From assembly GCF_009931435.1 (NCBI RefSeq), contig NZ_CP043414.1: a stretch of 64,000 nt of DNA; one strand, written 5' to 3'. This document shows, piece by piece, positions 5,139-38,690 of the stretch. The translations under genes were made by a program, and so were the position numbers. This DNA comes from Escherichia coli (GTDB lineage: Bacteria > Pseudomonadota > Gammaproteobacteria > Enterobacterales > Enterobacteriaceae). Within the stretch, counting starts at the first letter, position 1. Each line of letters begins with the position of its first letter. The notes under the pieces were generated by a model. The model was not told the DNA's origin. It saw nothing but the letters and a program-made list of their open reading frames with translations, and searched no databases.

Positions 5139-5154
5139 AGTTTTACTCAGACAT

Positions 5155-5260
5155 AAAAAAAACCCGGCATAGGGGACCGGGAAGAGGATAGTCTGCCGTC
5201 TCCAGACTAATAAACCGTTATAACACTCCCTGTTGGCACGGGAAACTTTGTGCTCTCAGT
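5155..5260 (-). ncRNA. gadY: GadY small RNA, antisense to the gadX 3' UTR
   Basis: Minus-strand sequence ACTGAGAGCACAAAGTTTCCCGTGCCAACAGGGAGTG...CCCTATGCCGGGTTTTTTTT matches the GadY sequence as I remember it; ends in a hairpin plus U-run; sits in the gadX-gadW intergenic region. Confidence 0.65.
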
Positions 5261-5506
5261 AAGTTAAATATAACTTTTACTGGAAATAAGATCAGCCATT
5301 TTTTTATAAACATAAGCTATACGCTGTGTGAAAATATATTGGTGTTGCATTTACTTATTATCAATTAACTGTTATGCAAAACTACTTTGTGGATAAATTT
5401 TGGTCCTACCAAATATGGCAGTTTTTGCACTAAGAAACAGTCTGGCGTCATTTCATTAGTATACTGAAATTGAAATAATCGCAGTAATGAAATATAAGGG
5501 ATAGTC

Positions 5507-10893: not shown

Positions 10894-11231
10894 TTTAGTC
10901 CCTGAAAATTCTTGAGATATAACGGTTCTTTAAATTGCGCGCGAGGAGAGGTATGAGGGATTTACAGACCAGCGGCATAGTGGGGTTGTCAGCCAGTAAG
11001 ATGGGATGCAAGCACAGTGATCGACATGGTGAGGTCAACGACAAAAAAAATGTTGCCGTTCTGCCAACAGTTCCTGCCAGCATTCGGGCAACGAAGGGTT
11101 CTACTGGTGGATACACATACCAGGGGAATAAAGTCGTTTTCGCCTCTCCTTTAGTCATCACCGGGGATAATGAAATCAGCATCTGCATCCCTCTTCATGC
11201 CTGCCATCATTTTCAGTTAATTATGTCCTGA

Positions 11232-13384: not shown

Positions 13385-13717
13385 ATGAAAAAAGTATTAG
13401 GCGTTATTCTTGGTGGTCTGCTTCTTCTGCCAGTGGTGAGCAATGCAGCGGATGCACAAAAAGCAGCTGATAACAAAAAACCGGTCAACACCTGGACCTG
13501 TGAAGATTTTCTGGCTGTGGACGAATCCTTCCAGCCAACTGCAGTTGGTTTTGCTGAAGCACTGAACAATAAAGATAAACCAGAAGATGCGGTTTTAGAT
13601 GTTCAGGGTATTGCAACCGTAACCCCAGCGATCGTTCAGGCTTGTACTCAGGATAAACAAGCCAACTTTAAAGATAAAGTTAAAAGCGAATGGGACAAAG
13701 TTAAGAAAGATATGTAA
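13385..13717 (+). CDS. hdeA: Periplasmic acid stress chaperone HdeA
   Basis: 110 aa with signal peptide (MKKVLGVILGGLLLLPVVSNA); conserved WTCEDFL motif. Confidence 0.92.
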   Translation: MKKVLGVILGGLLLLPVVSNAADAQKAADNKKPVNTWTCEDFLAVDESFQPTAVGFAEALNNKDKPEDAVLDVQGIATVTPAIVQACTQDKQANFKDKVKSEWDKVKKDM

Positions 13718-13832
13718 TTCCGGGAATACGTTACATCGTACTTCCTTGCATATTGAACAGGTAGGAATACCTTCTTCAAAAGCAGCTATTCCTTCTGTTC
13801 ATATTTAATCTCTATATTGAATGGGTTACAAA

Positions 13833-14159
13833 ATGAATATTTCATCTCTCCGTAAAGCGTTTATTTTTATGGGCGCTGTAGCGGCTTTGTCACTGGTGAA
13901 CGCACAATCTGCGCTGGCAGCCAATGAATCCGCTAAAGATATGACTTGCCAGGAATTTATTGATCTGAATCCAAAAGCAATGACACCGGTTGCGTGGTGG
14001 ATGCTGCATGAAGAAACAGTTTATAAAGGTGGTGATACTGTTACTTTAAATGAAACCGATCTTACTCAAATTCCTAAAGTGATCGAATACTGCAAAAAAA
14101 ATCCGCAGAAAAATTTGTATACTTTCAAAAATCAAGCATCTAATGACTTGCCGAATTAA
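13833..14159 (+). CDS. hdeB: Periplasmic acid stress chaperone HdeB
   Basis: 108 aa from ATG at 13833 (MNISSLRKAF...); signal peptide; paralog of HdeA (TCQEFIDL). Confidence 0.88.
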   Translation: MNISSLRKAFIFMGAVAALSLVNAQSALAANESAKDMTCQEFIDLNPKAMTPVAWWMLHEETVYKGGDTVTLNETDLTQIPKVIEYCKKNPQKNLYTFKNQASNDLPN

Positions 14160-14172
14160 TGGGGCACAAGTA

Positions 14173-14219
14173 AAAAGGAGTAGCAAGTTGAGCCATCTTG
14201 CTGCTCCTTTTTGCATTTT
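14173..14219 (+). terminator. Hairpin plus T-run after hdeB
   Basis: aaaaggagtagcaag ... cttgctgctcctttt followed by ttgcattttt. Confidence 0.5.
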
Positions 14220-14222
14220 TAT

Positions 14223-14870
14223 ATGACAGCAGAATTTATTATACGTCTTATACTCGCAGCAATTGCCTGTGGCGCTATTGGCATGGAAAGGCAAATGCGC
14301 GGCAAAGGAGCAGGGTTACGCACACATGTATTAATTGGCATGGGAAGCGCCCTGTTTATGATTGTTTCGAAATATGGTTTTGCTGACGTGCTGTCTTTAG
14401 ATCACGTCGGACTGGACCCCAGCCGTATTGCTGCTCAGGTGGTGACGGGCGTCGGGTTTATCGGTGCAGGTAACATTCTCGTTCGTAACCAAAATATTGT
14501 AGGTCTGACGACGGCAGCGGATATCTGGGTGACCGCCGCCATTGGTATGGTTATTGGTAGCGGTATGTACGAACTGGGCATTTATGGTTCAGTGATGACC
14601 TTACTGGTGCTGGAAGTCTTCCATCAATTAACCTTCCGCCTGATGAATAAAAATTACCATTTACAGCTGACATTAGTGAACGGTAATACGGTATCAATGC
14701 TCGACTGGTTTAAGCAGCAAAAAATAAAAACGGATTTAGTTTCGTTGCAGGAAAATGAAGATCATGAAGTGGTCGCCATTGATATCCAGCTTCATGCCAC
14801 GACGTCGATAGAAGATCTGTTGCGATTATTAAAAGGTATGGCAGGGGTGAAAGGCGTTTCAATTAGCTAA
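14223..14870 (+). CDS. yhiD: MgtC-family inner membrane protein YhiD
   Basis: About 215 aa from MTAEFIIRLILAAIACGAIGMERQ (MgtC/SapB-like N-terminus); follows hdeB. Confidence 0.8.
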   Translation: MTAEFIIRLILAAIACGAIGMERQMRGKGAGLRTHVLIGMGSALFMIVSKYGFADVLSLDHVGLDPSRIAAQVVTGVGFIGAGNILVRNQNIVGLTTAADIWVTAAIGMVIGSGMYELGIYGSVMTLLVLEVFHQLTFRLMNKNYHLQLTLVNGNTVSMLDWFKQQKIKTDLVSLQENEDHEVVAIDIQLHATTSIEDLLRLLKGMAGVKGVSIS

Positions 14871-14890
14871 TCTATATAGTTATTTATTCG

Positions 14891-14921
14891 CAGGAGTACC
14901 AGAGCGGTACTCCTGTTGGTT
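14891..14921. terminator. Bidirectional hairpin between yhiD and chuV
   Basis: caggagtacc agag cggtactcctg followed by T-rich sequence; lies between convergent genes. Confidence 0.55.
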
Positions 14922-15692
14922 TTAATGATCGAGGACGATCAGTGGTGAATGGTTGGCAGGATCTTTAAGTACGGTAATATCCGCGCCGTAGAGCATTGTC
15001 AGCGCCTGCTGTGTCAATACGTCCTGCGGTTTACCATTTGCGATAACCTTTCCTTTTTGCATTAATACAACACGGTCTGCATAACGCGCGGCAAGATTTA
15101 GATCGTGCAATACGCAGCAAACATTGAACTGCCGTTCGTGAACTAGCTGGCGTAATAAACGAAACAAGTGCTGCTGATGGTGAATATCCAGCGCCGAAGT
15201 TGGTTCATCAAGAAATAACCATTTCGGTGAGGGAGTTGGTTCCCAGAGTTGCACCAGCAGGCGCGCTAATTGCACGCGCTGTTGTTCACCACCGGATAAT
15301 TGCCGATAGTCGCGGTTTGCTAACGCCTGACAGTCACATAACGCCATTATTTGTGCTGTTTCATTATCCTGATTACCAGTACGATGCGGATGCCGCCCCA
15401 TCTGGATAACTTCTTGTACGCTGAATGGAAACGCCATGTGGCTATTTTGACGCATCACGGCCCGGTGTTTCGCCAGTTCAGTAATCGACCATTCATTTAA
15501 TGGCTTATTAAACAACCGACATTCGCCGCTATCAGGTTGAAGATAGCCGGTTAACTGGCGAAGCAGCGTAGATTTTCCCGCACCATTAGGGCCGAGAATG
15601 GCAACAATTTCCCCACCGGGAAAAGTCAGCGAGACATTATCAGTCAGACGCCGCCCCTGAAGGCTATAAACCAGATTCTGGGCGCTGATCAT
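14922..15692 (-). CDS. chuV: Hemin ABC transporter ATP-binding protein
   Basis: ABC ATPase with Walker A (GPNGAGKST) and signature LSGGEQQR; start at [11 protein letters not shown] overlapping the chuU stop (ATGA). The ORF track start is 51 codons too far upstream. Confidence 0.85.
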
Positions 15693-16681
15693 GTGATCCT
15701 CCGGTTGCGCAGAATCAACCACATAAAATAAGGGCCACCAAGCAGGCTGGTTAATAATCCCACGGGCATTTCTGCTGGCTGTACCAGTGTGCGGGCAAGC
15801 GTGTCTGCCATCAGCAATAAACAGGCTCCGGCGAGGGCGGAGCAAGGGATTAGCCAGCGGTGATTTGCCCCGGTAGTCATACGAATCAGATGCGGGATCA
15901 CCAGGCCAATAAAGCCGATAATGCCGCTTACCGATACGGCGGCACCAACGAGCAGTGAGCTCACTAACAATAATTGCTGGCGTTTACGCTTAACGTTCAC
16001 GCCGAGGTAGTGGGCTTCTTCATCACCGAGCTGCAGTAAATTCAGCGTTCCGGCGAGACAAGTTGTTGCAATAATGGCCGGTAGGATGAATGAACTGGCA
16101 ACCAATAACGTCGGCCATTGCGCCTGTCCAAGATTGCCCATCATCCACAATGTGAGTTGTCGTAGCTGCTGCTCATCGCCGATATAGCTCAGGATGCCGA
16201 TCGCTGCGCCGCACAGGGCATTGATGGCGATACCGGCGAGTAATAATTGCATCATGCTGCCATCGCGATGGCGCTGCGTGATGAGAAAAATGATGGTGCA
16301 GACCACTAAACTTCCGGCAATGGCAAACACCATTTGCTCATAGAGCACCAGCACCACTGGGAAGGAAAAGGGCAGCACAATAGCAACGCCAACCATTAAT
16401 GCAGAACCGCTACTGACGCCGAGTAATCCAGGGTCAGCCATTGGGTTGCGAAAAAGCCCCTGCATAATTACCCCGGCGGTTGCCAACGCTGCACCTACCA
16501 GCACCGCCAGCAAAACCCGTGGTAGACGAATATTGAGCCAGATATCGCGGTATTCCTCATCAAAAAGGGCATCAAAACTGATCTTTAACGCTCCCTGACT
16601 GGCACCGAACAGCACCAGAGCTAGCAATAATAGTGATAGCCCCATAAAGACCCTGGCGGAAAAGAGTGAATCCTTGAGCAC
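15689..16681 (-). CDS. chuU: Hemin ABC transporter permease (FecCD family)
   Basis: 330 aa polytopic membrane protein, translationally coupled to chuV. Confidence 0.85.
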
Positions 16682-16729
16682 GCAAAACTCCGTTACGACA
16701 TTACGGCGCGGAGATTCCGCGCCGGGGGA

Positions 16730-17353
16730 TCACGCCGGTTTCAGGTCCGGTTCAATCAGACTGTAGACCTGCTGGTTAAGTGCTGGCGCATTTGCCAGTT
16801 CATGGATATGTGCGGCGACATCGGCGCGGTTAACAAAACCATGACACTCCTGATTTTGTATCCGTTGTGCTTTGCCCGTTGCCGCACCATCAAGCAGACC
16901 GCCAGGGCGGAGAATGGCGTAATCAAGTTGGCTGGTTTGCAACCAGCTTTCCGCCAGCGTTTTTTCCCGTACCGCCTGACCAAACGCAGCCTTTGCCCGC
17001 TCCGATAAAAACGGCCAGCTATCGCCACATCCCAAAGAGGTCACCAGAATCATGCGACTGATGCCGGCCTTTTCGGCCTCATCAATCACTGTTCTGTGTG
17101 CCAGATAATCCTGAGCTCCGCCCATTGTTGAGATGATAAGCGCATCCGGGCCAGCTGCGCGGCAAGCAGCCGCGACTACGCTGGCATCACAGGCGTCGCC
17201 TGTAAAAACCTGTACGCCTTGTTGCGCCAGTTTCGTGGCGGCATCAGCATGACGAATGACAGCAACGACCGGACGTTGTTCCGCCAGCGCCAGTTCAAGC
17301 GTTCTGGCACCCACACCTTTTCCGCCTGCGCCAAAGAGTAGCCACGGCGTCAT
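16730..17353 (-). CDS. chuY: ChuY, NAD(P)-binding Rossmann-fold protein of the heme utilisation operon
   Basis: 207 aa; N-terminal GxxGxxG-like motif (LLFGAGGKGVGA); position in the chu operon. Confidence 0.7.
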   Translation of the reverse strand: MTPWLLFGAGGKGVGARTLELALAEQRPVVAVIRHADAATKLAQQGVQVFTGDACDASVVAAACRAAGPDALIISTMGGAQDYLAHRTVIDEAEKAGISRMILVTSLGCGDSWPFLSERAKAAFGQAVREKTLAESWLQTSQLDYAILRPGGLLDGAATGKAQRIQNQECHGFVNRADVAAHIHELANAPALNQQVYSLIEPDLKPA

Positions 17354-17847
17354 CAGGCGTGTTCCTTTAACGATGCTGCCAGAGCATGGAAGGCGCTGAC
17401 TTGTTCGCTCAGGAGCTGACGATGGTCATCCCTGCCGAGGAAGATTTTCAGCATTGCGCTGCCTTCTTTGTTGAAAAAGAGAATGGATGCGGTGTCCATG
17501 CCCATAAATTTACGTTCGATCAAGGCAATATGTGTGCAGTTTTCTGCTTTGATATGCCCGGACATGCCGTGCTTTCCGCGTAGGTTGAAATAGCCGTGGC
17601 GATGGAAACCCGAAGGCAGTTCGCCGCTAAATTCGAGGATTACATCGGCAGTATGTACTAACGTGGTGACGTTGCCCCATTCGCAGACGGTATCCCAGAC
17701 AGTATCGAATTTATCGCCTGACACTACGGTAGAGGAGGGTAGATTTCTCACTACTTCCAGCAGTGTGGTGTTGTATTGTTCGGCTACCACCTCCAGCGTA
17801 CCGTCCGGCTCCGTTTTCAAAAATTCTTGTAACGAGACATGGCTCAT
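17353..17847 (-). CDS. chuX: ChuX heme-binding protein
   Basis: 164 aa; position between chuW and chuY in the operon. Confidence 0.7.
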   Translation of the reverse strand: MSHVSLQEFLKTEPDGTLEVVAEQYNTTLLEVVRNLPSSTVVSGDKFDTVWDTVCEWGNVTTLVHTADVILEFSGELPSGFHRHGYFNLRGKHGMSGHIKAENCTHIALIERKFMGMDTASILFFNKEGSAMLKIFLGRDDHRQLLSEQVSAFHALAASLKEHA

Positions 17848-17859
17848 AAATCACTCCTG

Positions 17860-19197
17860 TTATGGTTTTTCACGCACAATCGTTGGCGCATTAAGTACCT
17901 GAATTAGTTCATTAAGAGACTGCAAAATATTGCTTGCCCAGAAACGACCTTCATTAGTCAGCCGCAGGCAAGTTGAAGCATCGCGGCTTAAGCCTTTTTG
18001 GTGCCATTGAGCCAGTAACGGCGCGAGTTTTTCGGCATGTGGCGTAAGTTCATCCAGCGGTACACGCGCTGTTTCAACACCTGACTGCAAGGTATGACGC
18101 CATTGCGCATTACGTTCGGCGTTACGCATGATCATCATCAGCGGTTTTTTGCCTGCCGCGACGGATTCATGCCAGGTCTGAAGACTGCGTTCGTTCATCC
18201 AGGAGTAACCATTAATCGAACCGCCGGCTCCGGAACCAAAGGCCAGACAATCGGCACCTTGTTTAATCAGCAGGTTATAGAGATTGCGTTCGCGTGTGGT
18301 ACGGCCCCAGTGGCTGTTACTGATACAGCGCCAACCAGCTTCGTCCATGAAGTCACACCCTTGCAGATAAAGATCGCGTCGTTCTGCCGGAGAGGGCACG
18401 GTAGTACGCCCATTTTCCACGGCTTTGCCCAGCGGTGTATTGGGCAGGACATTGAGCGCATAGAGATCGACGCCGTCGAGACCGATATCGCGGGCAATAG
18501 TCAGATCTTCTCCCCAGGTTTGCGCATCCTGACCCGGCAGGCCAAACAGAAGGTCACAGACCACCGCAGCACGGTCGCGTTTGACCAGGCTTTCCATAAA
18601 CGCAATGGCGGTTGGGCCATCCGAGGTGCGGGCCATTTTCTTACGGATTTTGCTGTTAAACGACTGAATACCAATTGAGAAGCGGTTTGCTCCTGCATCA
18701 AGGCAAGCATCGATTCGCTCAGCGTCAAAATTCAGTACCCGGCCTTCGATAGTGATTTCACAATCAGGGGCCAGTGGCAGCTTTTCTCGTAATGTGGTGA
18801 TAATTCTGGCCAAATCGTGTGCCGAAAGCGCGGAAGGCGTGCCACCACCGAAATAGACCGCGTGGATGGGGGCAGACTGATGCAATACGCTGTCCGCTTC
18901 CATTTCTATTTCACGAATCAGGGCGTCGGTATAATGAGCACACGCATCTTCATTAAAACGGTTCTGATAAAAACCACAAAACGTGCAGTGTGTTGCACAA
19001 AAAGGAATGTGTAGATAAACCAGTCGCTTACGTGGTGATACCGTTTGATTGAGCATCTCTTGCCAGGTCTGTGCCAGTTGCTCTTTGGCAACTGGAATGG
19101 CCCCACGAAACGGCATCATGGCGCGCCTGTCTTTAAATGGCTGATCACCGTCTAAAGCAAAATGTGGCGTGAGATCCAGGGTGTTATTTGTGTTCAT
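17860..19197 (-). CDS. chuW: ChuW radical SAM enzyme (HemN-like, anaerobic heme degradation)
   Basis: 445 aa with the radical SAM CxxxCxxC motif (CATHCTFCGFY). Confidence 0.82.
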   Translation of the reverse strand: MNTNNTLDLTPHFALDGDQPFKDRRAMMPFRGAIPVAKEQLAQTWQEMLNQTVSPRKRLVYLHIPFCATHCTFCGFYQNRFNEDACAHYTDALIREIEMEADSVLHQSAPIHAVYFGGGTPSALSAHDLARIITTLREKLPLAPDCEITIEGRVLNFDAERIDACLDAGANRFSIGIQSFNSKIRKKMARTSDGPTAIAFMESLVKRDRAAVVCDLLFGLPGQDAQTWGEDLTIARDIGLDGVDLYALNVLPNTPLGKAVENGRTTVPSPAERRDLYLQGCDFMDEAGWRCISNSHWGRTTRERNLYNLLIKQGADCLAFGSGAGGSINGYSWMNERSLQTWHESVAAGKKPLMMIMRNAERNAQWRHTLQSGVETARVPLDELTPHAEKLAPLLAQWHQKGLSRDASTCLRLTNEGRFWASNILQSLNELIQVLNAPTIVREKP

Positions 19198-19216
19198 TCG
19201 TCTGATTTAAATCCAT

Positions 19217-20131
19217 TTATTGCGGCCAAAGCTGCTGGTGTAAAGACTCAACGACATCAGCAATACGCGGACCCATTCCCAGAATCAGGTTTTGATCAAC
19301 GGTGATAATGCGCTGGTTTTTCCATGCGGCAGTGTGGGTAATTCCGGCAATAGAACGTAGCCGGTTAATATCGCCATCGACCATTTGTGAGGTTACGACA
19401 ATCACTTCTGGATTAGCCGCAATCAGTGATTCTGCACTGTAGCTTTTGTACTGCTGGTGGGTTGCGACGTTTTCTGCTCCGGCAAGCGAAAGAATGGCGT
19501 CCGCGACGCTGCCTTTACCGGCAACCTGTGGCGCACTTCCGCCTGCGGAGAGAATAAACATGGCTTTAACCGGGGCTTTTTTGGCCGCCACGTTTTGCTG
19601 TACTCGCTCCAGGCGTTGGTTGATCTGTGTCACCAGCGCCTCGCCTTGTTCAGGAACCTGTAGCGTTTTTGCCAGTTGGCGAATGTTGGCGTACATCTGC
19701 TCAAGGGTGGCAGGCACACGCGGCAGGGTGACGACGTTGACTTTCTGCGCTCGTAGTTGGTCGAGCACAATTTGTGGCCCGGCATCCTGCCAGGTAATTA
19801 CGCTATCCGGGCGAAGTGACAAAATGCCTTCGCTGCTGAGTTGTTTCCAGTAGCCAATATGCGGCAGTTTGGCGGTTTCTGGTGGATAAGATGTCGTTTC
19901 ATCGACACCAACCACGCGTTCGCCAGCGCCCATCGCGTAGATTAGCTCCGTCAGCGATCCTCCTGCGACCACGATACGTTCGGCAGCCGTTACGCTAAAA
20001 GCCCAGCTAAGAGCCAGTACTGCCGTAAACAATTTTTTTCGTTTTACCGCGGTCTTCGCGGCAGAGGCCACGGCTGAAATACATAACGTCAGTGGGGAAA
20101 AAAGAAACGGCCTGGTGGTGATCCTTGGCAT
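19217..20131 (-). CDS. chuT: Periplasmic hemin-binding protein ChuT
   Basis: Periplasmic binding protein; I place the start at MPRITTRPFLF... (304 aa) because the longer call would cover a Fur-box-like site. Confidence 0.75.
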   Translation of the reverse strand: MPRITTRPFLFSPLTLCISAVASAAKTAVKRKKLFTAVLALSWAFSVTAAERIVVAGGSLTELIYAMGAGERVVGVDETTSYPPETAKLPHIGYWKQLSSEGILSLRPDSVITWQDAGPQIVLDQLRAQKVNVVTLPRVPATLEQMYANIRQLAKTLQVPEQGEALVTQINQRLERVQQNVAAKKAPVKAMFILSAGGSAPQVAGKGSVADAILSLAGAENVATHQQYKSYSAESLIAANPEVIVVTSQMVDGDINRLRSIAGITHTAAWKNQRIITVDQNLILGMGPRIADVVESLHQQLWPQ

Positions 20132-20156
20132 AATATGAGAACTCTTATCAAATTGA

Positions 20157-20177
20157 GAATGATCATGATTATCATTT
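20157..20177. promoter_or_regulatory. Fur-box-like operator upstream of chuT
   Basis: gaatgatcatgattatcatt resembles the Fur consensus GATAATGATAATCATTATC; lies in the chuT-chuA divergent region. Confidence 0.5.
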
Positions 20178-20814
20178 GAGTTATATATGAAATACAACCG
20201 TCGATTCAATACGCAAGGCGTTACAAGCGTATTTATTTTTGATTTTTATCAAGATACTTCGTCAGCTAACGTTCTTGTTACCGACTAAATTTCAGCGCGG
20301 GAAAAAGCTGAGAACCCAGAGATATCGCGGCTTGCAGAGCAAAGAGAAGAGAAAATTATCACTGTTAACGACAAAGTTTAGTGATGAGGTCATGGGGGAA
20401 TAACCATAAAAACAAAGTGGTTTCCAGGGCGCAGGATAGGTTTCATAACCCCCTGTTTATTGTGTTAATGGCGGTTAAAAAAAAGCTTGATCATAAAAAA
20501 TTGATCGATAATAATTCTCATTATCACGTTCGCGCTTAACAAAACACGACCATATGGATAACAAAACCATAGCATTTGCAAGGGATAACGCACAGCGCTC
20601 TTCACTCCTGATGGGGCATATCGTTTTGCCTGATAAAGAGGGCGTGCTTTTGCGTATTTGCCGAGATACCAGGCAATTTCATGGGATATAAACGCCTGTA
20701 AACTCACCCGGCGAATATTATCGCTCTGAATTTTAAATAAATTTATTTCTCGCAAGCCACCCCGGTATTAACCCAGGCAGCCAGCATTTTTTATTTTCCT
20801 CATGGAGAATCGCT

Positions 20815-22797
20815 ATGTCACGTCCGCAATTTACCTCGTTGCGTTTGAGTTTGTTGGCTTTGGCTGTTTCTGCCACCTTGCCAACGTTTGCTTTTGCTAC
20901 TGAAACCATGACCGTTACGGCAACGGGGAATGCCCGTAGTTCCTTCGAAGCGCCTATGATGGTCAGCGTCATCGACACTTCCGCTCCTGAAAATCAAACG
21001 GCTACTTCAGCCACCGATCTGCTGCGTCATGTTCCTGGAATTACTCTTGATGGTACCGGACGAACCAACGGTCAGGATGTAAATATGCGTGGCTATGATC
21101 ATCGCGGCGTGCTGGTTCTTGTCGATGGTGTTCGCCAGGGAACGGATACCGGACACCTGAATGGTACTTTTCTCGATCCGGCGCTGATCAAGCGTGTTGA
21201 GATTGTTCGCGGACCTTCAGCATTACTGTATGGCAGTGGCGCGCTGGGTGGGGTGATCTCCTACGATACGGTCGATGCAAAAGATTTATTGCAGGAAGGA
21301 CAAAGTAGTGGTTTTCGTGTCTTTGGTACTGGTGGCACGGGGGACCATAGCCTGGGATTAGGCGCGAGCGCGTTTGGGCGAACTGAAAATCTGGATGGTA
21401 TTGTGGCCTGGTCCAGTCGCGATCGGGGTGATTTACGCCAGAGCAATGGTGAAACCGCGCCGAATGACGAGTCCATTAATAACATGCTGGCGAAAGGGAC
21501 CTGGCAAATTGATTCAGCCCAGTCTCTGAGCGGATTAGTGCGTTATTACAACAACGACGCGCGTGAACCAAAAAATCCGCAGACCGTTGAGGCTTCTGAA
21601 AACAGCAACCCGATGGTTGATCGTTCAACAATTCAACGCGATGCGCAGCTTTCTTATAAACTCGCCCCGCAGGGCAACGACTGGTTAAATGCAGATGCAA
21701 AAATTTACTGGTCGGAAGTCCGTATTAATGCGCAAAACACGGGGAGTTCCGGCGAGTATCGTGAACAGATAACAAAAGGAGCCAGGCTGGAGAACCGTTC
21801 CACTCTATTTGCCGACAGTTTCGCTTCTCACTTACTGACATATGGCGGTGAGTATTATCGTCAGGAACAACATCCGGGCGGCGCGACGACGGGCTTCCCG
21901 CAAGCAAAAATCGATTTTAGCTCCGGCTGGCTACAGGATGAGATCACCTTACGCGATCTGCCGATTACTCTGCTTGGCGGAACCCGCTATGACAGTTATC
22001 GCGGTAGCAGCGACGGCTACAAAGATGTTGATGCCGACAAATGGTCATCTCGTGCGGGGATGACTATCAACCCGACCAACTGGCTGATGTTATTTGGCTC
22101 ATATGCCCAGGCATTCCGCGCCCCGACGATGGGCGAAATGTATAACGATTCTAAGCACTTCTCGATTGGTCGCTTCTATACCAACTATTGGGTGCCAAAC
22201 CCGAACTTACGTCCGGAAACTAACGAAACTCAGGAGTACGGTTTTGGGCTGCGTTTTGATGACCTGATGTTGTCCAATGATGCCCTGGAATTTAAAGCCA
22301 GCTACTTTGATACCAAAGCGAAGGATTACATCTCCACGACTGTCGATTTCGCGGCGGCGACAACTATGTCGTATAACGTCCCGAACGCCAAAATCTGGGG
22401 CTGGGATGTGATGACGAAATATACCACTGATCTGTTTAGCCTTGATGTGGCCTATAACCGTACCCGCGGCAAAGACACCGATACCGGGGAATATATTTCC
22501 AGTATTAACCCGGATACCGTTACCAGCACCCTGAATATTCCGATCGCTCACAGTGGCTTCTCTGTTGGTTGGGTCGGTACGTTTGCCGATCGCTCAACAC
22601 ATATCAGCAGCAGTTACAGCAAACAACCTGGCTATGGTGTGAATGATTTCTACGTCAGTTATCAAGGGCAGCAGGCGCTCAAAGGTATGACCACTACTCT
22701 GGTATTGGGCAACGCCTTCGACAAAGAGTACTGGTCGCCGCAAGGCATCCCACAGGATGGTCGTAACGGAAAAATTTTCGTGAGTTATCAATGGTAA
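20815..22797 (+). CDS. chuA: TonB-dependent outer membrane heme/hemoglobin receptor ChuA
   Basis: 660 aa with signal peptide, plug and barrel domains, C-terminal aromatic residue (...VSYQW). Confidence 0.9.
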   Translation: MSRPQFTSLRLSLLALAVSATLPTFAFATETMTVTATGNARSSFEAPMMVSVIDTSAPENQTATSATDLLRHVPGITLDGTGRTNGQDVNMRGYDHRGVLVLVDGVRQGTDTGHLNGTFLDPALIKRVEIVRGPSALLYGSGALGGVISYDTVDAKDLLQEGQSSGFRVFGTGGTGDHSLGLGASAFGRTENLDGIVAWSSRDRGDLRQSNGETAPNDESINNMLAKGTWQIDSAQSLSGLVRYYNNDAREPKNPQTVEASENSNPMVDRSTIQRDAQLSYKLAPQGNDWLNADAKIYWSEVRINAQNTGSSGEYREQITKGARLENRSTLFADSFASHLLTYGGEYYRQEQHPGGATTGFPQAKIDFSSGWLQDEITLRDLPITLLGGTRYDSYRGSSDGYKDVDADKWSSRAGMTINPTNWLMLFGSYAQAFRAPTMGEMYNDSKHFSIGRFYTNYWVPNPNLRPETNETQEYGFGLRFDDLMLSNDALEFKASYFDTKAKDYISTTVDFAAATTMSYNVPNAKIWGWDVMTKYTTDLFSLDVAYNRTRGKDTDTGEYISSINPDTVTSTLNIPIAHSGFSVGWVGTFADRSTHISSSYSKQPGYGVNDFYVSYQGQQALKGMTTTLVLGNAFDKEYWSPQGIPQDGRNGKIFVSYQW

Positions 22798-22845
22798 TCA
22801 TCTGCCCCGATATTTCGGGGCATTTATCTGGAAGGAAGAGAGACA

Positions 22846-23874
22846 ATGAACCACTACACACGCTGGCTTGAGTTAAAAGAACAAAATCCCGGAAAGTACG
22901 CGCGTGACATCGCAGGTTTAATGAATATTAGCGAAGCAGAACTGGCATTTGCGCGCGTCACGCACGATGCGTGGCGGATGTGCGGCGATATCCGTGACAT
23001 TCTGGCGGCGCTCGAAAGTGTTGGCGAGACCAAATGTATTTGTCGTAATGAATATGCAGTCCATGAGCAAGTTGGTGCGTTCACAAACCAGCATTTAAAC
23101 GGACATGCCGGATTGATCCTCAATCCGCGCGCGCTGGATTTGCGTCTGTTTCTCAATCAATGGGCCAGTGTTTTCCACATCAAAGAAAATACGACTCGTG
23201 GCGAACGCCAGAGTATTCAGTTCTTTGATCATCAGGGCGATGCATTACTAAAAGTTTATGCCACCGACAATACCGATATGGCGGCATGGAGTGAGCTTCT
23301 GGCACGGTTTATCACCGATGAGAATACGCCGCTTGAGTTAAAAGCCGTTGATGCGCCAGTTGTTCAAACGCGAGCCGATGCCAGTGTGGTCGAGCAAGAG
23401 TGGCGGGCGATGACCGACGTTCATCAGTTTTTTACGTTGCTCAAGCGCCACAACCTGACGCGCCAACAGGCGTTCAATTTGGTGGCAGATGATTTGGCCT
23501 GCAAAGTATCCAACAGTGCGTTGGCGCAAATTCTTGAATCTGCACAGCAGGATGGCAATGAAATCATGGTGTTTGTTGGCAACCGTGGCTGCGTACAGAT
23601 TTTCACTGGCGTGGTAGAAAAAGTGGTGCCAATGAAAGGTTGGCTGAATATTTTTAACCCGACGTTTACTCTTCATCTATTAGAAGAGAGCATTGCTGAA
23701 ACCTGGGTAACCCGTAAACCTGCTAGTGACGGTTATGTGACCAGTCTGGAATTGTTTGCCCATGATGGTACGCAGATAGCGCAACTTTATGGTCAACGTA
23801 CAGAAGGCGAACAGGAGCAAGCGCAATGGCGTAAGCAAATTGCTTCGCTGATACCGGAAGGCGTTACTGCATAA
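22846..23874 (+). CDS. chuS: Heme oxygenase / hemin-degrading protein ChuS
   Basis: 342 aa directly downstream of chuA. Confidence 0.85.
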   Translation: MNHYTRWLELKEQNPGKYARDIAGLMNISEAELAFARVTHDAWRMCGDIRDILAALESVGETKCICRNEYAVHEQVGAFTNQHLNGHAGLILNPRALDLRLFLNQWASVFHIKENTTRGERQSIQFFDHQGDALLKVYATDNTDMAAWSELLARFITDENTPLELKAVDAPVVQTRADASVVEQEWRAMTDVHQFFTLLKRHNLTRQQAFNLVADDLACKVSNSALAQILESAQQDGNEIMVFVGNRGCVQIFTGVVEKVVPMKGWLNIFNPTFTLHLLEESIAETWVTRKPASDGYVTSLELFAHDGTQIAQLYGQRTEGEQEQAQWRKQIASLIPEGVTA

Positions 23875-23934
23875 CGTATAATTAAAGGGAGGTCTGGCTA
23901 TTTATTGCTGGGCCTCTTTATATTAATCAATCGA

Positions 23935-24465
23935 TCACACCAGATAATCAATATGCTGATGGCGTACCAACTCATTGATCCGCTTAAGATTGAGGATCAT
24001 CATGATATTGTGTTTATGGCAGTAGAACGTTTTTAGCGATATTTTCAGTTTCTCCAGAATATCTTCCGTTGTCATTTGATTCGCAATGCAGCTCAGAACC
24101 TGATGCTGCTTGCGCGAAAGGGACACATCCGCTTCAGGCACAGAGCAGTAACTGCCATTGATGAGTGCGACAAAGTCGATGATGGTGATAGTTCGCGGAA
24201 CAAAGGTCACCGGTACTTTCCCCAGGCAGCGTTTAATATTAAAGGGAGAGAAAATAATCACATGGACAGGTTTTAATCGTTCAATCTGAGTGAGCAAATT
24301 AGAATGAAATACATTATTCATTAATGTATCAATAATGACGAAGGCATGCTGATGCAACATTACGTCGATCTCTTCTTCGTTCTGTATATGAACGACATTA
24401 CCTTTGCTCAGAATGTTTTTCATCGCAGTGAAGAACATCGTATCCCTGGTAATTATAAGAAACAT
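23935..24465 (-). CDS. dctR: LuxR-family regulator DctR (YhiF)
   Basis: 176 aa with C-terminal LuxR-type HTH; adjacent to slp. Confidence 0.8.
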   Translation of the reverse strand: MFLIITRDTMFFTAMKNILSKGNVVHIQNEEEIDVMLHQHAFVIIDTLMNNVFHSNLLTQIERLKPVHVIIFSPFNIKRCLGKVPVTFVPRTITIIDFVALINGSYCSVPEADVSLSRKQHQVLSCIANQMTTEDILEKLKISLKTFYCHKHNIMMILNLKRINELVRHQHIDYLV

Positions 24466-24620
24466 AACCGACTCCTGGTGCGGACATTAACTTTATAATC
24501 AGTTTGCCAAAGGTAATTAACAGGACAGGGCTTATAATAATAATAGTTAGCTGGCTGTGTATTAATTTAATGTAATGCATGATGCAGATGCTGAGAAAGC
24601 ATCTGCATCTCTCGGTGGTG

Positions 24621-25187
24621 TTATTTGACCAGCTCAGGTGTTACTTGACTCACCGCATTGGTGTAGTAAGGCGCGCCCCAGCCCGGTTCCGGCCAGAATG
24701 CACCATAGCCGTAATCCCACAGGTTATAGGTGGTATTAACCACTTCTCTCAAATGCCACACCTGGATTCCCTGCATATTCACTTCCAGGAAGTTATACGG
24801 GACTTTATTGATAAAGCCAGGTTGTTCACCCTGAATGGTACCGAGGATGGTAACAAAGTGATTACGATAGTTCACTGGATCAAGGAAGCCGCTTTGTCTG
24901 GCGAGCAGTCGGCCCTGATAGTTGGCTTCAATATCAGGCTTCGCATAGCTATCCAACGGTAATACAGCGATTTCTAACAACGTATCCGTTTTGCCATTGA
25001 TAACGTTGATAACCTTCCCGCCAAAGCGCGCTTGTTGACCAACATATAACCCCGGCTGGTTATGAACAGCAACAAAACTTTTTTGGATATCAGGTTGGTT
25101 ATTGCCTTTGATATTTTGCGGAATTGAACTACATGCGGCAAGCAAAAATGAAAGGCTGAGGATGAGTGCACCTTTTGTCATGTTCAT
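24621..25187 (-). CDS. slp: Outer membrane lipoprotein Slp
   Basis: 188 aa from MNMTKGALILSLSFLLAAC (lipobox LAAC). Confidence 0.82.
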   Translation of the reverse strand: MNMTKGALILSLSFLLAACSSIPQNIKGNNQPDIQKSFVAVHNQPGLYVGQQARFGGKVINVINGKTDTLLEIAVLPLDSYAKPDIEANYQGRLLARQSGFLDPVNYRNHFVTILGTIQGEQPGFINKVPYNFLEVNMQGIQVWHLREVVNTTYNLWDYGYGAFWPEPGWGAPYYTNAVSQVTPELVK

Positions 25188-25431
25188 GTTACTATCCTTA
25201 TCAACAAATATTAAAACCATAATAGATATTTCTTTATAGTTTTCATCTGATTCTGAGGCGATATGCCTGATAGTAACGTAAACCTGTCTGATGTTTATAT
25301 CCCTTCAATTCAATTTAGATAATTATGGGGCGTGACATGAGTATGACATCGCCCCATGATATTAGCGACATATTTTAAAAATACTTAAAATATATTTTTA
25401 TTCATTAGTTATAAAGTGCTAATGTTCAAAA

Positions 25432-26664
25432 TTATGGTATTATATTCTGGTAATGCTTCGATAAGCGAATTCTTTTACCAGTTGGTAATTTTATTTCCAC
25501 CCCGTAATTTATATCTTTTTCATTAGGTAGTGGCCTCTTTAAATAATGACTGTGCGATATTTTTTCGAGTTGAAGCGTCCTGTATTTAAAAGCATTGAAT
25601 TCATCTTTAGACATTGTTGCCCATTTTTTAATTTTATTGTATAGGTGGTCTGTCGTAACAATTTGAAGTTGCTCGTAACATTCCTTTTGGAATTCTTGCT
25701 GATATTTTAATATATCTTTAAATGTAAGGTTTTTTACCTTTGTCTTTAAAAGTTGTATTATCGTTGAAGCAATTTCAGATTTTGCTCGCAAAGATTCATC
25801 ATTTATAGTCAACAGTGTTGAAAACAATCCATCAATTTGTTTGTCAAGGTACTGATCATAGTTATGTAATTTTTGGATGGGATGTTTTTTATGTAAAAAA
25901 ATAGTATTTAATAAATTTGCGTCAGTGAAATCTATATTGAGCAAATCTTCATAATAAAATTTTGACAAGGTCAGAACGAGCCCTGACATGTCTTGTCCTG
26001 TCATATTGAAATTAATAAAGTCACATCCAGAAAATACATTCATCCTGTTTTCATTTTCACTATGCGCAACATACAATTTGGCCAGTTTCAGATACAAGCT
26101 TTGAATGTCTTTTATCTCAGATGGTAAGTCTGCTCGTTGCCCAGCGAAAATGTTATTATCTGAGCAAACAGTTTGGATGCTGAATGTTTTAGGGATTTCC
26201 TCTTCTATGAGAATTCTTGTTGTGATTGGTCTGTTGGGTGTTGGATTAACGACTACAATGATTTGACATTCAGAATCTTTATCTTCTTGGTATATAATTT
26301 TATTTATCTGATTAAATATTGTTTGCGTCTGTTGCGTGAGTGGCTTTGAATCTATCGATTCAATGTTATTAATAATATTCACAAGTTGATCTACAACTCG
26401 TGAATATTCTGCATCTGTAAATGGGGGGATTGTGTGGCACTCATTAATTTGTTGTGATTGTTTTTGCACAAAATATAATTGTTCAGGATGGTTTTCTTCA
26501 CCTGGGAATGAGAAATTAATGAGTTGTTTTTCGCTATTATCATAAGGGCGCTTTGAAGTCTCCGGGGCTTTAACATCATTAAATATTTTGTCAGTATTTA
26601 TAGTACAATTATAAATATCACCATTATATATATTTATTATACCAGGGGTAAAATCAATTGACAT
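25432..26664 (-). CDS. yhiS: Low-GC hypothetical protein (YhiS-like) with a pentapeptide-repeat-like segment
   Basis: 410 aa ORF, strongly AT-rich, flanked by long AT-rich intergenic regions; located between slp and arsC where yhiS lies in E. coli. Function unknown. Confidence 0.6.
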
Positions 26665-27185
26665 AACATTCCTTATTGATCATCTTTTTTGCAAAATTTT
26701 TAGTTAATATGATAATTAGAGATATGAAATGATTTCCTTCAATGCAGCTATAAATACGATGCGACATATCTTCCTGATATAATTATCTTTAACTTCCATT
26801 TTATTTCTATGTGGTAATGTTTGAGTATAAAAAGGCAGTGATAGTATCGTAAAATAATGCGCTAGCAACTATCAAAAAACGCTCATTTTAAAAGGTTATG
26901 ATATGCTTTGAAGGTGTATGAGGTGAAATTTTAGTGATCTTTTTTAAGTGTAGCAATAAAATTGGTTAAGCTGTATTGAAATTATTTAAAGAAGTGTTGC
27001 ATTAGTATCTGAAATTTTTCCTTTAAAAGGGAGGATGAGACAAAAATGCGCAGCTTCGGCGCTAAAAATTCTTTAGTTTGATTTTGTTAACTTTAAAATA
27101 GCATCTGAGTCATATAGCTATACCTAAAATAACCGTCATAAATGCCACTTAGCAAAACAGATGGCGAAGGAGCCACGAAGAACAA

Positions 27186-27209
27186 ATAAGGGGGCATATC
27201 CCCCTTTAG
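27186..27209 (-). terminator. Rho-independent terminator after arsC
   Basis: Minus-strand hairpin aagggggatatgccccctt followed by a U-rich tract. Confidence 0.6.
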
Positions 27210-27635
27210 TTATTTCAGGCGTTTACCCGCTTCATCAACCACTTTCTCGCCATCTTCCTTGGTGAACGCGCCTTGTTGCGCATCTGGCAGAATTTCCAGC
27301 ACGACTTCTGAAGGGCGGCACAGGCGAGTTCCCAGCGACGTCACTACAATCGGGCGATTAATCAGAATCGGGTGCTGAAGCATAAAGTCGATTAACCGAT
27401 CGTCAGTAAATTTATCTTCTGCAAGGCCCAGTTCCTCATACGGCTCAACGTTTTTACGCAACAGCGCACGAACGGAAATCCCCATATCGGCAATGAGCTT
27501 GACCAGTTCATCGCGCGTTGGCGGTGTTTCCAGATAATAGATAATGGTCGGTTCTGTACCGCTGTTGCGGATCATCTCCAGCGTATTACGCGACGTGCCG
27601 CAGGCCGGGTTGTGATAAATAGTAATGTTGCTCAT
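27210..27635 (-). CDS. arsC: Arsenate reductase (glutaredoxin-dependent)
   Basis: 141 aa, MSNITIYHNPACGTSRNTL (catalytic Cys12 motif). Confidence 0.92.
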   Translation of the reverse strand: MSNITIYHNPACGTSRNTLEMIRNSGTEPTIIYYLETPPTRDELVKLIADMGISVRALLRKNVEPYEELGLAEDKFTDDRLIDFMLQHPILINRPIVVTSLGTRLCRPSEVVLEILPDAQQGAFTKEDGEKVVDEAGKRLK

Positions 27636-29345: not shown

Positions 29346-29496
29346 ATTACGCTCCTGATTGTTGCACTTAGTGTCTCTCTTCGAAGCGGATAAGTCAAAA
29401 ACATATATGACTTAACGAATATGTAAGTGTAGAGAAAGGTATAGGTGTGAATTAAGCGTTGGGTGTTCATTTGAAAGGAAGTCTGAATCAGGATGT

Positions 29497-29580
29497 AAAA
29501 AAACCGACTTTGCGTCGGTTTTTTACTCTTCAGCCAGAGTTGGTGGCTCTGGCTGGAGTGAGAATGCCCACATCTAACGG
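29497..29580 (-). ncRNA. agrA: agrA-like small RNA (dinQ-repeat unit 1)
   Basis: First copy of the repeated element ending, on the minus strand, in a hairpin (ccgacgcaaagtcgg) plus U-run; homologous to the dinQ leader. Boundaries and strand rest partly on remembered literature. Confidence 0.45.
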
Positions 29581-29729
29581 TTCAATACTATTAGCCAGTG
29601 GCTAACATTGCAAGCGTTAGCGATTTCTTCAGCTGGCGAAGGGACAGTTTGCTATACATGGTGGTGAAAGAGGATTGATATACTTTCATCGGGTCGCTGC
29701 CGTACCAAGCCTTGTCCGAATCCGGACGT

Positions 29730-29813
29730 AAAAAAACCGACTTCGCGTCGGTTTTTTTACTCTTCAGCCCAGAGTTGGTGGCTCTGGCTGGAGTGAGATA
29801 GCCATCATCTAAC
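29730..29813 (-). ncRNA. agrB: agrB-like antisense small RNA (dinQ-repeat unit 2)
   Basis: Second copy of the same repeat with a terminator hairpin (ccgacgcgaagtcgg) plus U-run on the minus strand. Confidence 0.45.
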
Positions 29814-38565: not shown

Positions 38566-38690
38566 AATTGCCTGATGCGCTACGCTTATCAGGCCTACAT
38601 AATCTCTGCAATCTATTGAATTTGCATGTTTTTGTAGGCTGGATAAGGCGTTCACGCCGCATCCGGCATGAACAAAGCGCACTATGTCAA
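38566..38690. repeat. REP/BIME-type extragenic palindromic element
   Basis: gcctgatgcgctacgcttatcaggcctac ... gtaggctggataaggcgttcacgccgcatccggcatg are classic E. coli REP palindromes. Confidence 0.7.

Follow-up and report, generated by a model that had tools for sequence, protein, structure and literature searches.

The Chu/Shu heme-uptake locus between yhiD and dctR of an Escherichia coli strain, probably a long-established allele in the acid fitness island

The chu locus and related heme-uptake systems

The heme transport locus known as chu in E. coli O157:H7 and as shu in Shigella dysenteriae was described by Torres and Payne (1997) and Wyckoff et al. (1998), as these papers are cited in PMC5799925 and PMC4746246. 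Its placement in the acid fitness island is also already published (Wyckoff 1998; xenoGI 2018). The locus lies within this island in O157:H7 and in E. albertii, and gene conversion has been proposed (xenoGI 2018, PMC5799925). The island spans 22 kb with chu in EDL933 versus 13.6 kb in K-12 (PMC9144400).

The copy studied here shares with O157:H7 chu and S. dysenteriae shu the same eight genes, their order and orientation, the yhiD-dctR site, the Fur boxes and the RNA thermometer. No structural difference separates it from these loci, of which it is a slightly divergent allele.

The hemPRSTUV and hmuRSTUV loci of Yersinia likewise encode a TonB-dependent receptor, a HemS-type cytoplasmic protein, a periplasmic binding protein and an ABC transporter. 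For example, ChuS matches HemS of Y. enterocolitica (PDB 2J0R, E = 3e-150) and ChuT matches HmuT (3MD9, E = 6e-43). However, the Yersinia loci so named have another gene order and genomic context and list no counterparts of chuW, chuX or chuY, and, unlike Yersinia hemPRSTUV, the RefSeq reference locus has no annotated small gene of the HemP type ahead of chuA. As for hutWXZ, the anaerobic heme utilisation genes of Vibrio cholerae, HutW has its equivalog in ChuW and HutX in ChuX (TIGR04107, TIGR04108). Vibrio uses HutZ in place of E. coli ChuY, which is an NAD(P)H-binding reductase, and the V. cholerae receptor genes are located elsewhere.

The stretch of DNA analysed here (the window) comprises 64,000 nucleotides. 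Its list of open reading frames with translations includes eight intact chu genes, six on the minus strand and two on the plus strand:

14922-15692, minus strand: chuV, heme ABC transporter ATPase, 256 aa (NCBIfam NF010068, 395 bits, cut-off 261; RefSeq annotation of a 99.5% identical locus)
15689-16681, minus strand: chuU, heme ABC transporter permease, 330 aa (Pfam FecCD, 320 bits; RefSeq name ShuU/ChuU)
16730-17353, minus strand: chuY, anaerobilin reductase, 207 aa (PDB 5GUY and 5FFQ, ChuY / ShuY-like, E = 1e-134; Pfam NAD_binding_10)
17353-17847, minus strand: chuX, cytoplasmic heme-binding protein, 164 aa (TIGR04108 HutX, 209 bits; PDB 2OVI ChuX, E = 3e-108)
17860-19197, minus strand: chuW, radical-SAM methyltransferase of anaerobic heme degradation, 445 aa (TIGR04107 rSAM_HutW, 571 bits, cut-off 400)
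19217-20131, minus strand: chuT, periplasmic heme-binding protein, 304 aa (PDB 2R7A ShuT, E = 2e-162; Pfam Peripla_BP_2)
20815-22797, plus strand: chuA, TonB-dependent outer-membrane heme/hemoglobin receptor, 660 aa (TIGR01785, 587 bits; PDB 9DIR, 9DHE and 3FHH, ChuA/ShuA, >1,430 bits)
22846-23874, plus strand: chuS, HemS-family protein that degrades heme in the cytoplasm, 342 aa (PDB 1U9T and 4CDP, ChuS, E = 1e-227; two Pfam HemS domains)

Each of the eight proteins was matched by family or structure searches to chu/shu homologues, including the solved structures of ShuA/ChuA, ChuS, ShuT, ChuX and ChuY; the chuA matches to PDB 9DIR and 3FHH span residues 29-660. The gene chuS lies directly downstream of chuA (intergenic gap of 48 nt), and this pair is divergent from chuT-W-X-Y-U-V. 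A first, sequence-only reading of this DNA had described the same eight-gene cluster between yhiD and dctR inside the acid fitness island. Coordinates, searches and RefSeq annotation agree with it on the cluster, and its position is borne out by annotation and by comparison with K-12. Gene order and all gene lengths equal those annotated by RefSeq in the 99.5% identical locus, so that no chu gene is truncated. Judged by homology, positions 14922-23874 hold the complete canonical Chu/Shu locus for acquiring and using heme, which is ordinary and already known.

Regulatory sites and proposed function

Three regulatory elements were found around the divergent promoters:

20155-20173: Fur box of the chuT promoter, with 3 mismatches to GATAATGATAATCATTATC
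20507-20525: Fur box overlapping the chuA promoter, with 2-3 mismatches to the Fur consensus
20786-20817, plus strand: shuA/chuA 5'-UTR FourU RNA thermometer, covering the Shine-Dalgarno sequence and the start codon (Rfam RF02597, 60.1 bits, gathering score 58)

The 64 kb contain no further site of this kind besides the two Fur boxes, and 0.05 would be expected by chance. That of chuT is conserved across four Escherichia species, while that of chuA, which overlaps a promoter-like site with -35 and -10 elements at 20487-20515, is invariant across the five aligned sequences. The shuA/chuA thermometer has been described (PMC3660397); here, all 32 of its 32 positions equal the Rfam RF02597 consensus and it is invariant in 5/5 aligned sequences. 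A permissive Rfam search for further RNA elements across the locus returned only sub-threshold chance matches (snoRNA and hammerhead models, E = 0.4-0.7). Upstream of the chuA promoter, a poly-A run is longer by one A in this copy.

The mechanism of heme uptake is taken from the published literature and applied here by homology. Under iron limitation, Fur would leave the two divergent promoters. Translation of ChuA would also be gated by temperature, the FourU hairpin hiding the ribosome-binding site. ChuA, powered by TonB, would take heme from hemoproteins of the host and bring it through the outer membrane, ChuT would ferry it through the periplasm and ChuUV would pump it into the cytoplasm. 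There, ChuS would degrade heme aerobically, while ChuW (radical SAM), ChuX and ChuY would open the ring and reduce it anaerobically, leading to iron release.

The locus is apparently functional, expression and heme use being deduced from the intact genes and regulatory sites. It could be objected that this strain has no close relative among the 5,426 complete E. coli genomes, its best matches being a few human, goat and dog isolates (98.4-99.5%), and that identity alone would let lineage-specific defects of a decaying or non-functional copy pass. However, the eight open reading frames are full-length and match the reference lengths, dN is far below dS for every chu gene, and both the Fur boxes and the thermometer are intact, which makes decay extremely improbable.

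The junctions with the acid fitness island

The locus is bordered by two genes of the island and by two hairpins:

14223-14870, plus strand: yhiD, left flank, acid fitness island (NF007431, 402 bits; annotated)
14890-14916, plus strand: hairpin with an 11-pair stem and the U-rich tail TGGTTTTAAT, predicted intrinsic terminator for yhiD
23886-23918, plus strand: strand-specific hairpin with G-U pairs followed by UUUAUAUU, likely chuS terminator (from its folding energy)
23935-24465, minus strand: dctR (yhiF), right flank, acid fitness island (annotated)

Compared base by base with K-12 MG1655 (L016) and a chu-less E. coli (L002), the window contains a chu-specific segment at 14874-23934 (9,061 bp, GC 0.503), which stands in place of the 38-nt K-12 spacer GTGTGGCAGCGTAGCCAGACTCACCGTAAGCCTGAAAT. 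In MG1655, dctR and yhiD are adjacent, with a 41-nt spacer and no chu, in agreement with the claimed absence of the locus from K-12. The left breakpoint (14873/14874) lies 3 nt past the yhiD stop codon relative to K-12, and up to 9 nt past it when other chu+ species serve as reference; in chu-less genomes, homology stops at query position 874. The right breakpoint (23934/23935) falls exactly at the dctR stop codon.

The sequence-only reading had rightly announced tight junctions, and both of its boundaries have to be moved. It had placed the right one within about 60 bp of the dctR stop, and the left one directly after the "yhiD terminator" hairpin. This hairpin is absent from the K-12 junction and belongs to sequence seen only in chu+ genomes; the breakpoint precedes it, so the earlier left boundary was about 48 bp off.

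The hairpin at 14890-14916 (-19.4 kcal/mol, z = -3.9) stands 5 nt from the chuV stop codon and is conserved in L003 and L006, two further Escherichia species. E. albertii, which is without yhiD, has at the same position beside chuV a hairpin with a different stem and a similar 3' flank. The empty-site spacer lacks this hairpin and folds no better than shuffled sequence. The hairpin was also considered as a diverged homologue of the K-12 spacer, and rejected as such (not significant, p = 0.13-0.29). The hairpin at 23886-23918 reaches -20 kcal/mol (z = -4.2) on the plus strand versus -8.7 kcal/mol on the minus strand, and is conserved in L003, L004, L006 and L007 (E. albertii).

The chu segment has a GC of 0.503, versus 0.397 and 0.355 in the flanks and 0.486 in the whole window, with sharp steps at both junctions; its GC3 (0.47-0.58) lies between that of hdeAB (0.34) and that of neighbouring core genes (0.62-0.65). 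Such steps, a GC3 under the core-gene level, and the absence of chu from K-12 and from 59% of complete E. coli genomes speak for the view, implied by the sequence-only reading, of chu as a recent, horizontally acquired pathogenicity islet inserted into the island of pathogenic E. coli and Shigella lineages. Base composition speaks both ways, as the GC of the segment is close to that of the window and its overall GC is therefore not atypical, the AT-rich flanks being the atypical part.

Furthermore, no direct or inverted terminal repeats bracket 14874-23934, where only chance-level matches are scattered through the segment. The alignment with K-12, proposed as a way to find a target-site duplication, reveals none, the 38 nt of the K-12-type spacer having been replaced instead. 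The segment holds no integrase or mobility gene, its open reading frames beyond the eight heme-related genes overlapping the latter, and ARAGORN found no tRNA or tmRNA gene in the whole 64,000-nt window. Like tRNA-linked pathogenicity islands such as LEE at selC, chu is variable among strains and linked to virulence in the literature. Unlike LEE at selC, it is only 9 kb long, has no tRNA, integrase, direct repeats or mobility genes, and behaves as a homologously exchanged allele. In E. coli genomes with and without chu, the flanking sequences share 97-98% identity, a pattern that allelic exchange would produce.

Distribution and age of the locus

The locus is present in 2,234 of the 5,426 complete E. 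coli genomes (41%). Its identity to annotated chu loci is 98-99.5%, and does not exceed 99.5% to any of these genomes. According to published work, the presence of chu follows phylogroup, not pathotype.

Beyond E. coli, chu lies between dctR and yhiD in L003 and L006, and between dctR and hdeB in E. albertii L007, where it adjoins hdeB because yhiD is absent; the right junction, with the hairpin of the chuS-dctR spacer, is the same in all three. Among the Escherichia loci sampled by a genome scan that did not return the E. coli species representative, and whose species sampling is thus incomplete, chu is complete in these three, partial in one (L004) and missing from two (L005 and L008). The dS values of chu genes are 0.37-0.75 against E. 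albertii and 0.32-0.52 against L003, versus 0.30-0.37 and 0.24-0.38, respectively, for gor, rlmJ, prlC and rsmJ, the only four core genes in the comparison, with chuS standing apart as an outlier at 0.75 against E. albertii. The chu dS is similar to or somewhat above that of the core, which suggests that chu genes are at least as diverged as core genes.

These cross-species junction and dS data count against a recent islet, which appears largely refuted and very improbable. The earlier claim that the insertion is characteristic of pathogenic lineages keeps its part on K-12 and overstates recency, given that chu occupies this site in E. albertii and in two more species, its core-like dS and its presence in 41% of complete E. 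coli genomes. Judged from these comparisons, chu has long been present in the genus Escherichia and is no recent insertion in pathogens.

The empty sites seem to be old as well. The spacers of E. coli, Escherichia sp. E1V33 and E. whittamii are mutually homologous (local alignment p = 0.0005); because of this homology, the shared site across species and the core-like dS, the chu+ and empty states can be regarded as old alleles. The preferred reading, to which a probability of about 70% is given, is that of a canonical functional locus forming one of two old yhiD-dctR alleles, which would result from a single old insertion followed by vertical inheritance, loss or homologous exchange, with no mobile-element machinery. 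Most likely, an acid fitness island originally devoid of chu would have received the locus in a single insertion that predates the split between E. coli and E. albertii. The locus would then have been inherited vertically, lost, or exchanged for the empty allele through homologous recombination within the island genes on either side. In E. fergusonii, the island is located elsewhere on the chromosome, dctR adjoins yhiD and chu is missing, which would favour a single ancient insertion. The 73-nt dctR-yhiD spacer of this species, tried for polarising the event, shows no detectable homology to either the chu+ or the empty allele.

Conversely, the empty allele could have originated by deletion. 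The xenoGI analysis assigns chu to the same branch as the island (PMC5799925), and most sampled loci carry chu, at least in part. Furthermore, when the chuS terminator region is reverse-complemented, the empty-site spacer of E. coli shows a weak resemblance to it (nominal p = 0.003-0.0075), with a 9-nt exact match, TAGCCAGAC, and 18/21 positions matching L003, which could point to such a deletion. However, this resemblance is inverted, absent from the E. whittamii and E1V33 spacers and weak after multiple testing. The chu-less island of E. fergusonii and the gap in composition between chu (0.50) and the island flanks (0.36-0.40 GC) also argue against it, and L004, with the only clear deletion observed, presents another picture, chuA-chuS being retained and ERIC elements present. 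A deletion origin is thus considered unlikely.

An extension of the two-allele reading can be put forward tentatively, as a doubtful though conceivable scenario: a trans-species presence/absence polymorphism at yhiD-dctR, whose two alleles would predate the splits between Escherichia species. Balancing or niche-dependent selection would maintain both alleles, homologous recombination would move them between lineages, and the K-12-type spacer would be a rearranged remnant of the chuS terminator. This idea is partly anticipated by the gene conversion proposed by the authors of xenoGI (PMC5799925).

The presence of chu in this strain shows only that it belongs to a chuA-positive lineage. Among iron-acquisition systems associated with virulence, chu is a textbook case, and Clermont phylotyping uses chuA as a marker. 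The result obtained at the level of the junctions, of modest value, is that chu appears to be an old acid fitness island allele common to Escherichia species, and not a mobile island. This status as an old allele would be relevant wherever the presence of chuA is taken as evidence of acquired virulence.

Gene content and placement of the chu locus

Eight ORFs in two divergent groups occupy 14922-23874:

14922-15692, minus strand, chuV
15689-16681, minus strand, chuU
16730-17353, minus strand, chuY
17353-17847, minus strand, chuX
17860-19197, minus strand, chuW
19217-20131, minus strand, chuT
20815-22797, plus strand, chuA
22846-23874, plus strand, chuS

ChuV matches the NCBIfam heme ABC ATPase equivalog (395 bits for a cut-off of 261), ChuW TIGR04107 (571 bits) and ChuA TIGR01785 (587 bits), and ChuX meets TIGR04108. 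ChuU belongs to the FecCD family of permeases and ChuT to Peripla_BP_2; the fold of ChuY is of the NAD(P)H-binding type, and ChuS contains two HemS domains. Furthermore, a search of solved structures found near-identity of ChuA to ChuA/ShuA (9DIR, 9DHE, 3FHH), ChuS to ChuS (1U9T, 4CDP), ChuY to ChuY (5GUY, 5FFQ), ChuX to ChuX (2OVI) and ChuT to ShuT (2R7A); ChuW has no close relative among these structures, the nearest being HemN.

When window 13500-25500 was compared by megablast with 5,426 complete RefSeq E. coli genomes, the flanks matched in 5,421, and 2,234 reached at least 80% query coverage, which requires that chu is present. The annotated genes under the match are chuA, chuS, shuT, hutW, hutX, chuY, shuU and a heme ABC ATPase, and all eight are intact in the window, being as long as their annotated reference counterparts. 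The locus lies between gadA-gadX-gadW-mdtFE-gadE-hdeD-hdeAB-yhiD on the left and dctR-slp on the right, surroundings that are the acid fitness island. The earlier observation of a chu locus inside this island is thus confirmed, its eight genes between yhiD and dctR being borne out by protein families, structures, annotated match and gene order.

None of the 5,426 genomes is closely related to the source genome. Identity to one and the same set of strains is 99.5% across the chu region and falls to 97.3-98.4% across the adjacent 13-24 kb, which indicates a recombination mosaic around the island. Next to slp lies a 410-aa ORF of very low GC (25432-26664, minus strand; GC 0.316, GC3 0.275); it has no Pfam match, and the corresponding protein of a chu-less E. 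coli is only 66% identical. Compared with strain E200086 (NZ_CM128605), about 1.8 kb carrying a permease gene and an ArsR/SmtB-family regulator gene is missing at ~26981-27210, between an AT-rich yhiS-like gene and arsC.

Small RNAs of the window (Rfam matches above gathering scores)
5150-5263, minus strand, GadY
11043-11114, minus strand, ES205, near the gadE upstream region
29495-29577, minus strand, AgrB-type antisense RNA, dinQ locus
29728-29812, minus strand, AgrB-type antisense RNA, dinQ locus
38591-38631, minus strand, ES036

Regulatory elements of the chuT-chuA spacer

The 683-nt spacer between chuT and chuA holds the only two Fur-consensus sites of the whole 64-kb window, for a chance expectation of 0.05:

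20155-20173, Fur consensus match 1
20507-20525, Fur consensus match 2, overlapping a promoter-like site at 20487-20515
20786-20817, shuA/chuA thermoregulator (Rfam, above gathering score, identical to the consensus)

This RNA thermometer and its role have been described (PMC3660397). Aligning the window with one partial locus and three further Escherichia species shows conservation of both Fur boxes, of the promoter and of the final ~90 nt of the 5' UTR, against a variable middle part of the spacer. The chuA -35 element is directly preceded by a poly-A run (20478-20485) of 8 A in the window and E. albertii, and of 7 A in E200086 and in two divergent lineages (L003, L006). Between chuA and chuS, a GC-rich stem-loop of 8 bp followed by a T-rich tail (22803-22822, plus strand) could attenuate chuA read-through into chuS.

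Junctions with the empty site

A nucleotide-level comparison of the junctions used a chu-less E. coli (L002) and K-12 MG1655, whose dctR-yhiD spacers are identical and without chu, so that the absence of the locus from K-12 holds. On the left, homology stops after 14873 (yhiD TAA plus TCT); other chu-positive species share TCTGTRT, which places the breakpoint somewhere within 14874-14880. On the right, the match picks up again precisely at the dctR stop codon (23935). The chu-specific segment, 14874-23934 (9,061 bp, GC 0.503), replaces 38 nt of K-12-type spacer. A target-site duplication had been raised as a point to check; neither direct nor inverted repeats bracketing this segment were found, the whole window yielded no tRNA, and no mobility gene is present.

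Strong hairpins sit just within both ends of the segment:

14890-14916, -19.4 kcal/mol, z = -3.9, U-rich tail on the plus strand, predicted yhiD terminator
23886-23918, -20 kcal/mol, z = -4.2, plus strand only and hence predicted chuS terminator

The sequence-only reading set the left boundary immediately after the first of these. The hairpin is real, but the boundary is slightly off, homology ending before it. Because it lies inside the segment, and because folding found no significant structure in the K-12 dctR-yhiD spacer, this "yhiD terminator" is assigned to the chu-positive allele. E. albertii, which lacks yhiD, has a hairpin at the same position beside chuV, with a different stem and a similar 3' flank (CTCCTTTTGTATTTAA versus CTCCTGTTGGTTTTAA). 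In strain NBRC 107761 (locus ~19560-19626), hdeB is followed by the hairpin and directly by chuV, and the U-rich tails are on both strands, whereas the E. coli hairpin is one-directional.

The GC step at the junctions is real (50.3% in the segment, 39.7% and 35.5% in the flanks, 48.6% in the window), and the atypical part is the AT-rich flanks. GC3 of the chu genes (0.47-0.58) is below that of neighbouring core genes (0.62-0.65), above that of hdeAB (0.34) and similar to that of yhiD, dctR and slp.

Distribution and history in Escherichia

A DctR scan with one genome per species gave six Escherichia loci, mapped with tblastn and blastn:

L003, divergent Escherichia lineage (labelled "E. coli"), chu complete, dctR to yhiD
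L006, divergent Escherichia lineage (labelled "E. coli"), chu complete, dctR to yhiD
L007, E. albertii, chu complete, dctR to hdeB, without yhiD
L004, Escherichia sp. MOD1-EC7003, only chuS-chuA
L005, Escherichia sp. E1V33, empty
L008, E. whittamii, empty

The left junction is kept in L003 and L006, and the chuS-dctR spacer with its hairpin in L003, L004, L006 and L007. The insertion had been called characteristic of pathogens; its identity and location were right, but this framing is too narrow. In MOD1-EC7003 (locus ~13648-14296), dctR-chuS-chuA is retained and chuTWXYUV lost; after the yhiD stop come an ERIC repeat and next the chuT-chuA spacer, which begins at the equivalent of about window position 20395, and the chuA 5' UTR contains another ERIC copy, inverted with respect to the first. 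In Logan assemblies (L013-L015), a DctR homologue 52% identical to that of the window adjoins genes for a urea transporter, a complete urease cluster and an ammonium transporter as well as hdeB-hdeA, so that a different acid-resistance cargo takes the slot filled by chu in Escherichia.

The arrangement itself is already published, the junction and dS analyses adding detail and no new kind of object. The island is 22 kb with chu in EDL933 versus 13.6 kb in K-12 (PMC9144400), and cryptic-clade-specific chuA alleles serve PCR typing (PMC13118800). The xenoGI paper (PMC5799925, 2018) describes the Wyckoff et al. heme transport locus inside the island in O157:H7 and E. albertii; it also notes that the E. 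fergusonii island is without heme genes at a non-syntenic site, and the authors suggest that the distribution needs clean deletion or gene conversion.

dS speaks against recent import, the chu genes being at least as diverged as core genes. Between the window and E. albertii, dS is 0.37-0.75 for chu genes, 0.30-0.37 for the core genes gor, rlmJ, prlC and rsmJ, and 0.83-0.99 for the island flanks hdeB, dctR and slp; against L003, it is 0.32-0.52 for chu and 0.24-0.38 for the same core genes. The island genes dctR, slp, hdeB and yhiD (23935-25187 and 13833-14870, against L005-L008) reach between-species dS of 0.6-1.3, two to three times the values of chu and neighbouring core genes.

In E. fergusonii, the island lies elsewhere, beside uxuAB, with dctR and yhiD adjacent and without chu; their spacer is too diverged to be aligned to either allele. 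Together with the composition contrast, this chu-less island favours an island that would originally have been without chu, followed by a single old insertion. One weak contrary hint comes from the E. coli empty spacer, which is similar to the chuS terminator region in reverse complement (nominal p = 0.003-0.0075), a similarity absent from the empty spacers of L005 and L008. Spacers at the empty sites of E. coli, L005 and L008 are mutually homologous (p = 0.0005), and within E. coli the flanks of chu-positive and chu-negative genomes are 97-98% identical. Since chu-positive and empty alleles both span species, homologous recombination in the flanks would be the simplest route by which both have moved.
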